Assembly: GCA_049287205.1 (NCBI GenBank)
Contig: JBAQFJ010000001.1
Span: 943,653-1,007,652 of the forward strand
From: Microgenomates group bacterium
Lineage (GTDB): Bacteria > Patescibacteriota > Microgenomatia > UBA10105 > UBA927
DNA: 64,000 nucleotides
Reading direction: 5' to 3'
Position numbers and translations under genes: made by a program
Shown: positions 42,672 through 47,897 of the stretch, in pieces
How positions within the stretch are numbered: position 1 is the stretch's first letter
Layout of the letters: each line of letters opens with the position of its first letter
The notes under the pieces: generated by a model
What the model was told of the DNA's origin: nothing
What the model saw: only the letters and a program-made list of their open reading frames with translations
Database searches by the model: none

Positions 42672-43055
42672 TTATGCGTCGCCAGTGAATTTTTGTCCAA
42701 ACGCCTTTTTTGCGTTGCGTTCAACTTCTCTCCAATCTGGCTCACCGCGTTTTTGGGGAATTACCTTTTCTTTTTGTACTCCTACGTGTTTTGCGCGTTC
42801 AACCAATGCATCAAGATGTTGAAATCTGTTTGTTATAATTGACTGTTGATCATGTTTTGGAAGCGTAGAAAGAATAAGTGCCTCACTGAAGCTAAAAGCG
42901 ATACCAACAAACTGAGTACCTGAAGGGTTATTCTCAGGCGACATGGCTCTTATAGTAAGAAAGAAAGAGGTATATCGCAATGCAGCGCTGTGATGTATAT
43001 CACTAGCGGTACATTCCTTGTTGACATGACTGGTAAACTTGCGTAGAATATACAT
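42672..43055 (-). CDS. Doubtful hypothetical ORF. Its 5' part overlaps a strong plus-strand promoter, and the true start, if any, may be the internal Met at 42944.
   Basis: No recognised domain. Confidence 0.25.
   Translation of the reverse strand: MYILRKFTSHVNKECTASDIHHSAALRYTSFFLTIRAMSPENNPSGTQFVGIAFSFSEALILSTLPKHDQQSIITNRFQHLDALVERAKHVGVQKEKVIPQKRGEPDWREVERNAKKAFGQKFTGDA
43021..43049 (+). promoter_or_regulatory. Sigma70-type promoter TTGACA-17-TAGAAT for the rRNA operon leader or a small RNA
   Basis: Read directly: TTGACA tgactggtaaacttgcg TAGAAT. Confidence 0.55.
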
Positions 43056-43206
43056 TTGCTCGTGTAAGGGTATACTTTTTTATTGATTTCTCGTTCGTTT
43101 CCAAGAGAAATGAGTAAAAAATTATTCATGACAAGACACACACCATATAACCGAAAGATAAACGGATTTTTGCCGTGGTGATCTTCTTTCATGGATAACG
43201 TATGAA

Positions 43207-43230
43207 CCCCGCACAGGCGGGGTTTTTCTT
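43207..43230 (+). terminator. Intrinsic terminator or attenuator (CCCCGC-ACAG-GCGGGG followed by TTTTTCTTT) between the promoter and tRNA-Ala
   Basis: GC hairpin plus a T-run on the plus strand, about 160 nt downstream of the promoter. Confidence 0.55.
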
Positions 43231-43310
43231 TGCCCTTCGAAGTTTTAACGAAGGAGGGTAATGGACCCCTCGCACATTTTTAAAGTTGGACGACACACTC
43301 TCTGGGTTTC

Positions 43311-43383
43311 GGGCCCGTAGCTTAGCTGGTAGAGCGCATCATTTGCAATGATGAGGTCACCGGTTCGAATCCGGTCGGGTCCA
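43311..43383 (+). tRNA. tRNA-Ala (anticodon UGC)
   Basis: GGGCCCGUAGCUUAGCUGGUAGAGCGCAUCAUUUGCAAUGAUGAGGUCACCGGUUCGAAUCCGGUCGGGUCCA with a G3:U70 pair. Confidence 0.9.
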
Positions 43384-45684
43384 CAATAAAAAGTTCGTTT
43401 CGCGGGATAAGCGATTACTGAGTAATCTTTTATCTCGCGACAAGAGCGCGTCGTCGCGTAAACCGCGACAATAGCACTTTTACAATATCAATAGTATCTT
43501 CCTTTATAAATAGGACAAGGAAGATACATGGTTTTTTTGAATGAAATATGAGTAGTTACATCGTAAGGGATAATCTTAAATGTTGATTACCTGTTACGAT
43601 GACATTTCGTTGGGCGACAATTTTTTTATTAAATGAGTCGAGAAAAATAGAGCAAAGCGCGCTAATTAATTTTAGCTCCTTTGTTCTCTGCAACGCTTTT
43701 AAAGTTGATAATGGATGCCCTGGGTATTCATGCCGAGGAAGGACGTATATGACAGCGATATTCGTCGGGGAGGAGTCATAATCCTGTGATCCGGCGGTTT
43801 CCGAATGGGGAAACCCGTCTAGTGAAGAACTAGTCAATGTACGATGAAGATAACCGAAAGGTTGGGATAGTCGTATGTAGGATACCGGGCGAACTGAAAC
43901 ATCTCAGTAGCCTGAGGAATAGAAATCAAGTACGAGATTCCGTCAGTAGCGGCGAGCGAAAGCGGAAAAGTCTAAACCACAGCGCAAGTTGTGGGGTTGT
44001 AGGGCTTTCGATCTGGAATGCAATTGGTGATAACAGAATACCGTGGAATAGGAAACCAAAGAACGTGAAAGTCGTGTATGTGAAATTACCAATTCTCCTA
44101 GAGAGTTCCTAAGTACCATGGACCACGAAGGGTCTGTGGGAATCTGGGTCAACCACGATCCAAGACTAAATACATGAATGCACCGATAGTGAACAAGTAC
44201 CATGAGGGAAAGGTGAAAAGCACCCCGGAAGGGGAATGAAATAGTACCTGAAATTATCAACTAACAAACAGACGAAGTCCTGCAATCGCAAGATTTGGAT
44301 AACGTCGTGCCTATTGAAGAATGAACCGGCGAGTTGCCCAGTACGGCTTTGCTTAATCAAGTAACCCTTGAGGAGGCGTAGTGAAAGCGAGGTCTAATTG
44401 ACCGATTATGTTGTACTGGACAGACCCGAAACCAGGTGAGCTAACCATGAGCAGGGTGAATGTTGACGAAAGCCAACAAGAGGCCCGAACTCGTCAGAGC
44501 TGCAAATCTGTGAGATGACTTGTGGTTAGGGGTAATATGCCTATCGAACCTGGAGATAGCTGGTTCTCCCCGAAATATATTTAGGTATAGCGGTTACTAA
44601 TTCCCGGAAGGGGTAGAGCACTGAATGATACGTGTTTCGCAAGGAATACGCATCAATCAAACTCCGAATACTTTCCGTGATACCGTAACTAGTCAGACAT
44701 GCACGGCTAAGCGCGTGTGTCAAGAGGGCAACAGCCCGGACTTACATCTAAGGTCTCTAAGTGTGTGCTCAGTGGTTAAGGAAGTTATGAATTTAAGACA
44801 CCCAGGAAGTTGGCTCAGAAGCAGCCACCTTTTAAAGAACGCGTAACAGCGCACTGGATGAAATTCGTAGCGCCGAAAATGAACGAGGCTCAAGCACGCC
44901 ACCGAAGATTAAGATGTGCCGTAAGGCACGTGGTAGGGGAGCGTTCTGTTCTGCGGTGAAGGTTAGGCTGTAAGGCTGACTGGAGCGGACAGAAGTGAGA
45001 ATGCCGGTATGAGTAGCGTTTGGAAGTGAGAATCTTCCATGCCGAATGCGCAAGGTTTCCGAAGCAACGTTCGTCGACTTCGGGTAAGTCGGATCTAAGC
45101 CGAGGCCATTATTTTGATGGCGTAGGTCGATGTATAAACGGTTTATATTCCGTTACTATAGTGTATTGATTAAGACACAAAGGAATGACAATGAGGGATT
45201 TGTTGATGTCTCGCACTCGCGGGATCTAAGCATTAAAGTAGTGAGGACTGGTAAATCCGTTCTCATGTTTAACTAAAGATGTGGGGGAGTTTGAGGAGCA
45301 ATCCGATGACAACATCAATCGTTTCTTATTCGAGAAAAGTTTCGTTGTGAAATACATTGTATCCGTACTAATAACCAACACTGGTGCGCTGGTAGAGTAT
45401 ACCAAGGCAAGCGGGCGACAGCAGTTTAAGGAACTCGGCAACAAAAACTAGGTGTAACTTATTGGAGATACCTTACCTAGAGCAATCTAGGTCACAGTAA
45501 ACGACACTATGCAACTGTTTAACTAAAACACAGGTCTCTGCGAAGCGGAAACGCAACGTATAGGGGCTGACACCTGCCCAGTGCCGGTAAGTTAAAAATG
45601 GTCGGTAAACAAAAACGTAAGTTTTTTTAGCTGGCTTTTTAAGCTCCGGTGAACGGCAGCAGTAACTATAACTGTTCTATGGTA

Positions 45685-46292: not shown

Positions 46293-46948
46293 GCGAAATT
46301 CCTTGTCGGGCAAGTTCCGACCCGCACGAAAGGTAGAATGACATAGTGACTGTCTTAAACTGTTACCCGGCGAAATTGAAATGGCTGTGAAGATGCGGCC
46401 TACTCACACATGGACAAAAAGACCCCATGAAGCTTTACTGCAATTTGGCACTGAAGAGTTTATTTTAACTGTCGAGTATAGGTGGGAGCCTTCGGGCGAA
46501 CAATGGAATACCACTCTTTAAAATGAATGAATCTTACTTACTCCTACATAAAAATCTAGGAGCAGGACACTGTCTGATGGGCAGTTTAACTGGGGAGGTT
46601 GCCTCCAAAAGTGTAACGGAGGCGTGCAAAGGTTGGCTAATCCTGAATGGAAACCAGGACGTGTCGTGCAAACGCGATAAGCCAGCTTGACTGCGAGACG
46701 TACATGTCGAGCAGATGCGAAAGCAGGCGTTAGTGATCCTCGATACCCTCGTGGGAGGGTTCGGGCTTAACGGATAAAAGCTACTCTGGGGATAACAGGC
46801 TGATCGCTTCCGAGAGTCCATATCGACGAGGCGGTTTGGCACCTCGATGTCGGCTCATCCTATCCTGGGGCTGTAGAAGGTCCCAAGGGTCCGGCTGTTC
46901 GCCGGTTAAAAGGGTACGCGAGCTGGGTTCAGAACGTCGTGAGACAGT

Positions 46949-47310
46949 AGACCTTAGTGGAATAGACGCCACTATAACGAGCTGTCCATCCTTTACCGTT
47001 CTAGAATCTTTGTATATCGAGAAATTTTAAAGGATCCCGCAAAACAATACTAATTATATTGAATGCGGGAATAAATCTGACTAATTGCTGGAAACACTCA
47101 GTATCTAATACTACTTTTAAAAAAAGTAACAATGTATTAGTGGAGTCAATCAGCAGGGAAGGCCCCGCCTTGGCGGGGAACCCTCAGAGACTATATGTCA
47201 GATCTGGCTTCGCCAGAAAGATATAGTCCGAACTGTATGGCGACATACAGACTGCAGCAGAAATGCGTGCAGAGTCGTTTTTACATCAAAAAACGATATT
47301 AACATTATTG
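46949..47310 (+). other. ORF-less group I intron in 23S domain V, inserted after GAGACAGT and before TCGGTC (E. coli 2593 / I-CreI-type site)
   Basis: The exon resumes with TCGGTCTCTATCC...CTAGTACGAGAGGACCG. The intron ends in G. It shares an AAGATATAGTC...ATGGCGACAT core-like block with intron 1. Confidence 0.7.
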
Positions 47311-47754
47311 TCGGTCTCTATCCTGTGTGAGCGTTCGATTCTTGAGGGGAGTTCTCTCTAGTACGAGAGGACCGAGAGGAACAGATCCCTGGTTTGCCTG
47401 TTGTCACCCTGAGAGGTGGCACCGCAGGGTAGCTAGATCTGGAAGGGATAAGTGCTGAAAGCATCTCAAGCACCAAGCCCACCCCAAGATGAAGAATCGT
47501 TGAAGATCCGTTGTAGATGACAACGTTGATAGGCGAGAAGTGTACGCACCGTGAGGTGTTCTAGCTTACTCGTACTAATTGATCGAATGTTGTGGAGAAC
47601 AAAGGAAGATTTGTTCTATTCCCAAACGATATGAACATCGCCTCTGGGATCAGCAACAAGATTATCCCTTATGTGTAATTACTCATTCAAAAAGTGTGAA
47701 TATTGATATTAACAATTAAATATTGGTAAAATAGCGAATCGAGAACCGCTCTAG

Positions 47755-47882
47755 AGTTCTCCAGTTTTTTGAGCGACGTGGCACCACCCGATCCCATCCC
47801 GAACTCGGAAGTGAAACGCGTTAGCGCTGACAATACTTGGTCCGCGAGGTCCTGGGAAGATAAGTCAAAGCTGGGGAACTGT
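47755..47882 (+). rRNA. rrf: 5S ribosomal RNA (boundaries approximate)
   Basis: CCCATCCCGAACTCGGAAGTGAAACGCGTTAGCGCTGA core, and a helix I GTTCTCCAG/CTGGGGAAC extended into a long processing stem. Confidence 0.7.
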
Positions 47883-47897
47883 GGAGCGGTTTTTTCG
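47871..47897 (+). terminator. rRNA operon terminator: the 3' arm of the long 5S-flanking stem followed by TTTTTT
   Basis: CTGGGGAACTGTGGAGCGG pairs with CCGCTCTAGAGTTCTCCAG (47742-47760). It is followed by TTTTTTCG. Confidence 0.5.

Follow-up and report, generated by a model that had tools for sequence, protein, structure and literature searches.

The operon described here lies in a 64,000-nucleotide (nt) stretch of DNA (hereafter the window) from a Microgenomates group bacterium (GenBank assembly GCA_049287205.1, contig JBAQFJ010000001.1, positions 943,653 to 1,007,652). It is a complete tRNA-Ala(UGC)–23S–5S operon, unlinked from 16S, of a Candidatus Gottesmanbacteria-like bacterium of the Patescibacteria, or candidate phyla radiation (CPR). 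Between its promoter and the tRNA gene runs a leader of ~175 nt, which was found to be a conserved module associated exclusively with tRNA-Ala/23S. On comparative evidence alone, the chances are about even that this leader acts as a transcription-attenuation gate on the operon, possibly one that senses translation. A first-pass annotation of the same DNA had asked whether the leader was an independent small RNA or an attenuator. The question proved apt (the module is conserved and its terminator must be read through); as for the choice, attenuation is put at even chances, and an independent small gene is considered possible, on the unlikely side.

The conserved leader

The promoter, the leader and the tRNA gene comprise the following elements, in order along the window:

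43021..43049, + strand: sigma-70 type promoter, TTGACA (43021-43026), 17 nt, TAGAAT (43044-43049); 11 of 12 consensus positions, predicted start ~43056
43058..43071, + strand: leader hairpin A, with a GCUC/GGGU stem
43076..43121, + strand: leader hairpin B, variable and missing from some relatives; holds an in-frame upstream AUG at 43110
43121..43199, + strand: P1 domain, whose 5' strand (43121-43137, holding the AUG) pairs with the 3' strand (43184-43199)
43128..43181, + strand: short open reading frame (mini-ORF) MTRHTPYNRKINGFLPW, 17 codons plus UGA
43204..43227, + strand: intrinsic-terminator-like hairpin GAACCCCGC ACAG GCGGGGUUU plus U-run; nine pairs, six of them G-C
43272..43291, + strand: degenerate boxA-like GCACAUU... 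(43272-43285), then UUGGAC, between terminator and tRNA
43311..43384, + strand: tRNA-Ala(UGC), identified with Rfam and ARAGORN; G3:U70, CCA not encoded

With the nearest relatives, the 220 nt from promoter to U-run can be aligned. A profile hidden Markov model (nhmmer) detected the leader, over its 3' two-thirds, in 24 loci linked to the glutamate dehydrogenase gene (gdh), in each case immediately 5' of tRNA-Ala. A metagenome scan with the pattern TTCATGAGA…CCCCGC…GCGGGGTT returned 104 loci, of which ~74 were true instances; about 28 of the 104 matches were rejected as chance (CRISPR repeats, gene ends and one match 3' of 16S on an unrelated contig) after inspection and an Rfam scan. Among 83 distinct leader sequences, 73 have tRNA-Ala(UGC) within 420 nt and the others run into 23S or a contig edge. 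No true instance among the gdh-linked and metagenome loci was found ahead of 16S, where contigs were long enough. A covariance model of the leader matched each locus once only and had no further match in the window. Comparison of the leader with Rfam 15, a check proposed in the first-pass annotation, returned no family (best E 0.14, all scores far under the gathering thresholds). Similarity to the Trp and Phe leaders was faint and non-significant (E 2.9–8.2), and no description of the leader was found in the literature searched.

Taken alone, a single promoter match is not significant, since the window holds 14 promoter-like sites where 16.7 are expected. Across homologous loci, TTGACA-17/18-TA[G/C/A]AAT was present in 74 of 75, with TTGACA itself in 71 of 74, at a median distance of 68 nt from the leader AUG. 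The start region, ACAUxUUUGCC, is conserved and forms hairpin A, whose loop reads GAUGC in most relatives and whose stem varies compensatorily between loci (GCCC/GGGC, GCUC/GAGC, GCCU/AGGC). The leader transcript folds with a z-score of -4.7. UUUGCC of the start region, and likewise UUCAUGAGAAGC, had been considered as boxA, and both were abandoned after the canonical boxA was located downstream. More distant relatives keep a promoter and an ORF of 15–19 codons. One of them (L061) has a terminator unrelated in sequence behind a consensus promoter and a 19-codon ORF, and another (L051) has a 15-codon ORF starting AUGAGA inside a long-range helix. What these relatives keep supports the view that it is the architecture, and not its sequence, that is functional.

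The long-range helix P1 is supported by covariation across relatives. It averages 16 base pairs (bp; range 9–21), with a 5' strand made of the highly conserved UUCAUGAGAAGC, which has the AUG inside, and variable flanks, and a 3' strand that starts 0–9 nt past the mini-ORF stop codon. The mean duplex energy was -13.5 kcal/mol, compared with -6.0 for shuffled spacers (mean z -3.6), and cognate strands paired at -15.0, whereas permuted partners averaged -11.7 ± 0.29 and none of 5000 permutations did as well. RNAalifold predicted P1 on an unfitted MAFFT alignment of one homogeneous subgroup, in which 93.7% of the cells were paired and five compensatory pairs were present, both values beyond all 500 shuffles. 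In an alignment of 63 distinct sequences fitted to the model, and therefore biased towards the structure by construction, 91% of P1 cells were paired, compared with 46–56% in slid controls, and 18 of 26 pairs were compensatory. On full or mixed leader sets, MAFFT plus RNAalifold recovered the terminator alone because the P1 3' strand was misaligned, a problem solved by the homogeneous subgroup and the covariance model. Artificial P1 mini-constructs gave no result. In the subgroup of the window itself (A4, 43055-43227), RNAalifold instead paired the P1 5' strand UAUUCAUG with CGUGGAUG, where the mini-ORF ends, which is possibly a second conformation of the leader.

The length of the mini-ORF is maintained. 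From the conserved AUG, it extends for 17–20 codons in 83 of 83 distinct homologues (counts 14, 16, 38 and 15). In frame +2, the stop may come at any codon from 2 onwards or be missing altogether, and it falls at codons 17–20 in five of the 83 sequences and one of the 25 clusters; for a stop at codons 17–20, a composition-preserving null gave ~0.08 per cluster, with 25 clusters. The mini-ORF is open, and its stop falls at codon 17–20 even in sequences with an out-of-frame GUGUAG motif. A 23-codon version could start at the upstream AUG at 43110. The genome is poor in Shine-Dalgarno sequences, even weak ones being found ahead of 10 of 36 long ORFs, so that the missing Shine-Dalgarno sequence is no argument against translation of the mini-ORF, which we infer to be translated. 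Many ORFs have a TAnAAT-like -10 box 6–12 nt before the ATG (for example those starting at 5982, 21556 and 51321, and at 53419 and 56780 on the minus strand), which suggests that leaderless mRNAs are frequent. A likeness of the mini-peptide to the N-terminus of ribosomal protein bL34 was dropped, as it is not conserved across homologues.

The hairpin at 43204-43227 is the best terminator-like site within 41000–49500 and lies 3–9 nt past P1. As in an intrinsic terminator, a G+C-rich stem-loop is followed by a U-run, and this arrangement is conserved in all homologues. It is predicted that the hairpin does terminate transcription. Its stem CCCCGC/GCGGGG is near-invariant (61–63 of 63 sequences), the U-run after it is conserved, and the same stem is present in 21 of 25 unbiased loci. 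Such invariance is unusual for a plain terminator, given that 23S identity goes down to 70–80% across the same loci. A regular-expression search of all loci gave no promoter match in any terminator-to-tRNA gap; TTGACC-17-TTTATT, which spans the hairpin in locus L013, was rejected as a promoter, not being conserved. In eight relatives, the U-run is separated from the tRNA by only 5–12 nt. With the sole promoter upstream and gaps as short as these, read-through of the terminator is obligatory for transcription of tRNA-Ala, 23S and 5S.

Elements resembling boxA were found only 3' of the terminator. The E. coli boxA core GCUCUUUAACAA, with up to two mismatches, had 61 matches in 28.6 kb of tRNA–23S spacers and 16 in 397 kb of background, which amounts to an enrichment of ~53-fold. 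A degenerate boxA-like GCACNUU, reading GCACGUUUAACAAU in relatives, is present in 43 of 56 terminator–tRNA gaps of at least 27 nt. These are predicted NusB/NusE sites, and their position after the leader terminator means that the latter would be met by unmodified polymerase.

Two further features of the gaps were observed. The sequence UGGAC (43287-43291 and homologues), which lies 10–20 nt 5' of tRNA-Ala, is the complement of GUCCA at the 3' end of the tRNA, and the two might pair in the precursor and so affect RNase P processing. The gaps of six loci (L015, L027, L044, L134, L158 and L179) contain extra fragments, such as GGGCCCGAAUCCGCCAGC... or a tRNA-Ala 5' half plus insert, upstream of an intact tRNA-Ala. 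These fragments are possibly remnants of tRNAs, or else tRNA genes with introns; tRNA introns have been reported in Patescibacteria (PMC13011429).

Possible attenuation and competing explanations

If the leader is an attenuation gate, the single conserved promoter would start all transcription of tRNA-Ala, 23S and 5S, and every polymerase would have to read through the leader terminator before becoming termination-resistant at boxA. The gate would set the number of polymerases entering the operon. Its likeliest input would be whether a ribosome initiates on the mini-ORF before P1 folds, by which translation capacity would be fed back on rRNA synthesis. Both the coupling of mini-ORF translation to termination and the direction of that coupling are hypothetical parts of this explanation. 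That the leader is specifically a ribosome-sensing attenuator, in which co-transcriptional initiation competes with the burial of the AUG by P1 and so decides passage to Nus loading at boxA, is a tentative proposal that we regard as rather unlikely. If true, free translational capacity would feed back directly on 23S, 5S and tRNA-Ala synthesis, in an organism that has one rRNA operon and for which few regulators are known.

Several observations weigh against attenuation. No upstream segment was found that is complementary to either terminator arm beyond chance, the duplex energies with the two arms being -7.0 and -8.3, compared with -6.7 and -8.9 in shuffled controls; the leader therefore lacks the terminator/antiterminator switch that is classic for trp-type attenuators and for terminator riboswitches. 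Between the stop codon and the terminator stem there are 21–28 nt, too many for steric blocking of the hairpin by a ribosome that terminates there. Among homologues, the peptide sequence is not conserved and has no 3-nt codon periodicity, so that any importance of the ORF would lie in its being translated and not in the product. The AUG and the UAG are themselves within conserved RNA motifs, and part of the ORF signal could thus stem from RNA constraints. Finally, the metagenome set was selected by the AUG motif and the terminator, and only the 25 loci derived from nhmmer are unbiased for both.

Some of these observations fit another explanation, according to which the leader is an independent small gene, either a small RNA or the mRNA of a micropeptide of 17–23 amino acids, with its own promoter and terminator, while rRNA is transcribed by constitutive leak and is not coupled to it. 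The unit is complete in this respect, with promoter, ORF and terminator; its transcript folds well, ORF length is maintained, the antiterminator alternative is absent, and boxA begins a 'normal' rRNA leader only past the terminator. However, the peptide that such a gene would encode is unconserved. In addition, an essential operon would have to rely, in every lineage, on leak past a strong, near-invariant terminator whose U-run is, at the closest, 5 nt from the tRNA, and the element was found nowhere but ahead of tRNA-Ala/23S. With these points on both sides, a small gene is possible and was judged to have a minor share of the probability.

Alternatively, the leader could be a processing or chaperone element of the pre-rRNA, in which P1 would be an RNase III-type helix, the GC hairpin a boxB-like or stabilising structure and an inefficient terminator, and the ORF a by-product. 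The order of hairpin and boxA-like GCACAUU recalls boxB-boxA of the E. coli rrn leaders, the 9–21-bp P1 duplex resembles the stems around 23S and 5S, and conserved, base-paired RNA motifs fall on the AUG, the UAG and the 'RRRLRV' codons. By contrast, the conserved U-run right after the hairpin marks an intrinsic terminator rather than boxB, some relatives have gaps of 5–24 nt with no boxA-like motif after the hairpin, and the ORF closes at codon 17–20 even with GUGUAG out of frame. A role in processing was considered improbable on this balance.

Putative attenuation by the leader can be compared with known systems. The leader-peptide attenuators trpL, hisL and pyrBI, and the ampC attenuator, which reportedly responds to growth rate through the binding of ribosomes, share with it the order of promoter, short leader ORF, intrinsic terminator and structural genes; the ORF start is embedded in structure. 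Unlike in these systems, the genes under putative control here are those of rRNA and tRNA and not of amino-acid or nucleotide biosynthesis, there is no antiterminator, and the stop codon is too distant for a steric block. No regulatory codon run was found in the homologues, whose peptides vary, without an Ala run or any other cluster of codons in common. Of the traits of a trp-type attenuator, the leader lacks the antiterminator and the regulatory codons; a short ORF of maintained length does precede the terminator and is putatively translated. The antitermination leader of E. coli rrn operons contains boxB-boxA-boxC and operates with NusB/NusE (rrnTAC). The operon described here resembles it in the E. 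coli-type boxA of the tRNA–23S spacer and in the degenerate copy that is often present before the tRNA. It differs in that boxA comes after the leader terminator and gives no protection there, and in that E. coli rrn leaders have nothing corresponding to the P1/mini-ORF module. The leader would represent a leader-ORF/terminator type of control, here on an rRNA operon and without an Rfam family, and is the new part of the locus.

What is known of the control of rRNA synthesis concerns almost entirely initiation, by guanosine tetraphosphate (ppGpp)/DksA and initiating nucleoside triphosphates, with Nus-factor antitermination afterwards. Another point of control would be provided by a conserved terminator placed between the sole promoter and the rRNA genes, before boxA and beside a maintained mini-ORF, and its coupling to translation, if real, would give physical form to the old idea of 'ribosome feedback'. 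CPR bacteria cannot be cultured alone and are without many standard regulators; the leader is one of few candidate cis-regulatory RNAs for them, and is short and testable in vitro.

The 16S-unlinked operon and its host

RNA genes were annotated with Rfam and ARAGORN over the whole 64-kb window. Downstream of the tRNA gene, the operon consists of the following:

43474..43486, + strand: boxA GCACUUUUACAAU, in the tRNA–23S spacer
43561..43695, + strand: 5' strand of the 23S processing stem, duplexed with 47588-47674
43688..45683, + strand: 23S rRNA exon 1, ending at E. coli U1931
45684..46291, + strand: group I intron L1931, 608 nt
45802..46236, + strand: predicted intron-encoded single-domain LAGLIDADG homing endonuclease ORF, 144 amino acids
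46292..46948, + strand: 23S exon 2, E. coli 1932-2604
46949..47310, + strand: group I intron L2604, 362 nt, without ORF
47311..47597, + strand: 23S exon 3; the mature 23S is 2,940 nt long
47588..47674, + strand: 3' strand of the 23S processing stem
47760..47876, + strand: 5S rRNA, Rfam 87.4 bits
47870..47897, + strand: 3' strand of the 5S flanking stem plus TTTTTT operon terminator

Rfam, ARAGORN and the sequence itself placed the promoter, the terminator, tRNA-Ala(UGC) with its G3:U70 pair, 23S, 5S, the processing stem and the T-run where the first-pass annotation had put them; the two 23S introns, the mini-ORF, helix P1 and the boxA elements had been missed. The unit is organized as an rRNA transcription unit, with 23S and 5S in order, processing stems, a promoter at the 5' end and a terminator at the 3' end. 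The stem around 23S, 43561-43695 with 47588-47674, is very long (-82 kcal/mol), and 5S is flanked by a separate stem (~47743-47765 / 47870-47894) with TTTTTT after it. In the 23S–5S spacer, a promoter-like TTGATA-18 nt (with TG)-TAAAAT is found at 47703-47732, 28 nt 5' of 5S, and may be an internal promoter for 5S or have arisen by chance.

The claims that no 16S lies between gdh and the tRNA, and that the 16S gene is unlinked, were borne out. Rfam found no small-subunit (SSU) rRNA in the whole window, that is, in 43 kb upstream and 16 kb downstream of the operon. A blastn search with E. coli 16S as query found none within ~10 kb of the operon in at least 27 related assemblies, and Rfam found tRNA, large-subunit (LSU) rRNA and 5S, and no SSU, in the ~10 kb around the operon in seven relatives. 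tRNA-Ala(UGC) is the sole tRNA in the window operon and in all 18 related loci scanned, tRNA-Ile being found in none, in agreement with the proposal that the spacer tRNA-Ala is retained and tRNA-Ile is not.

The gdh gene is just upstream of the operon, and its protein is 86% identical to a homologue from a Candidatus Gottesmanbacteria metagenome-assembled genome; nearly all of the best 80 gdh relatives are Patescibacteria, and a look-up of the exact protein sequence returned no record. The 23S exons are 94–98% identical to those of a Gottesmanbacteria metagenome-assembled genome (the close relative L002). The order gdh, tRNA-Ala(UGC), 23S and 5S, without 16S, recurs in ~28 independent assemblies, and could serve as a synteny marker for annotation when the leader is included (gdh–leader–tRNA-Ala–23S).

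Since rRNA regions are generally difficult in metagenome assembly, the missing 16S might be thought an artefact hiding a true 16S–tRNA–23S–5S operon. No support for this was found. The related contigs include several on the Mb scale and complete chromosomes (OY970230.1 and OY969569.1), and because the same order, leader included, is found in ~28 assemblies, several of them of this kind, misassembly was excluded. A conserved promoter immediately upstream of the unit, and the documentation of unlinked rRNA genes in Patescibacteria from long reads (10.1101/705046), likewise speak against an artefact, which is thus improbable in the extreme. A 16S gene right upstream, the finding that according to the first-pass annotation would overturn its proposal if made on a corrected assembly, was not seen in the window or in these relatives.

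The 23S–5S operon of Thermus thermophilus is the classic unlinked case. The window operon falls within the definition of unlinked genes as being >1500 bp apart, and the arrangement is known already, since Brewer et al. (10.1101/705046) count Patescibacteria as one of the clades whose rRNA genes are unlinked. The operon is like the unlinked units described there in having its own promoter, in lying >1500 bp from 16S and in being clade-conserved in small-genome organisms. It differs in that the spacer tRNA-Ala and the spacer boxA are kept and a mini-ORF/terminator leader is acquired, a leader that is not in that paper.

Between gdh and the rRNA promoter, a minus-strand ORF of ~90 amino acids (42672-42944) gave no Pfam match. 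This ORF is missing from the close relative L002, where the gdh stop codon is only ~43 nt from the promoter. Elsewhere in the window, tRNA-Trp(CCA) and two tRNA-Met(CAT) genes are clustered at 3461-4628, on opposite strands.

Two group I introns in the 23S gene

The 23S gene spans 3,910 bp, compared with 2,925 model positions, and this excess of 985 nt is due to two group I introns inside it. Mapping against E. coli rrlH located two large insertions, of 608 nt after U1931 and of 362 nt after U2604. Both are preceded by U and end in G, in accordance with the exon/intron rule of group I introns, with the junctions (slashes) ...AUGGU/AAAUU...UUAUG/AGCGA for L1931 and ...GACAGU/AGACC...AUUG/UCGGU for L2604. 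The L1931 site is empty in L002 and L013, and the L2604 site in L013 and L051. Against the Rfam family Intron_gpI, whose gathering score is 50, the L2604 intron scored 77.2 bits over 46993-47250. The L1931 intron scored 37.5 bits (E 4.6e-7, over 46124-46275), under the gathering score, because its core is split by the 144-amino-acid ORF; homologous introns at the L1931 site of relatives (L026, L028 and L015) exceed that score. As read off the sequence, GCUGUC (~46982-46987) of the L2604 intron is able to pair with the exon end GACAGU. Both insertions are group I introns and are putatively self-splicing.

The 144-amino-acid ORF matched Pfam LAGLIDADG_1 (E 3.5e-23) and contains the motif WWIVGFVDGEGCF; its relatives in the PDB belong to the I-SmaMI/I-OnuI family (E ~1e-32). 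It is a predicted single-domain LAGLIDADG homing endonuclease. Group I introns with LAGLIDADG genes are found at L1931 in Simkania negevensis, in Thermotoga and in organelle LSU rRNA; these share the site after U1931 and the endonuclease family, and differ in host lineage. Within CPR, 23S positions 1931 and 2604 are recurrent sites of LAGLIDADG-bearing insertions (Tsurumaki et al. 2024, PMC11270868). The introns described here occupy the same two sites, with a LAGLIDADG_1 gene at 1931, and no essential difference from that set was apparent; both are therefore further members of the published CPR insertion type. When Gottesmanbacteria 23S genes are annotated, they should be expected to be unlinked and intron-bearing.

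Close relatives vary in the sites that are occupied. Seven of them have from none to three group I introns detectable by Rfam. L002 is without the L1931 intron and contains another insertion of ~770 nt (14522-15299) 11 nt upstream of the L2604 site (~L2593). Intron turnover between near-identical 23S genes is rapid.

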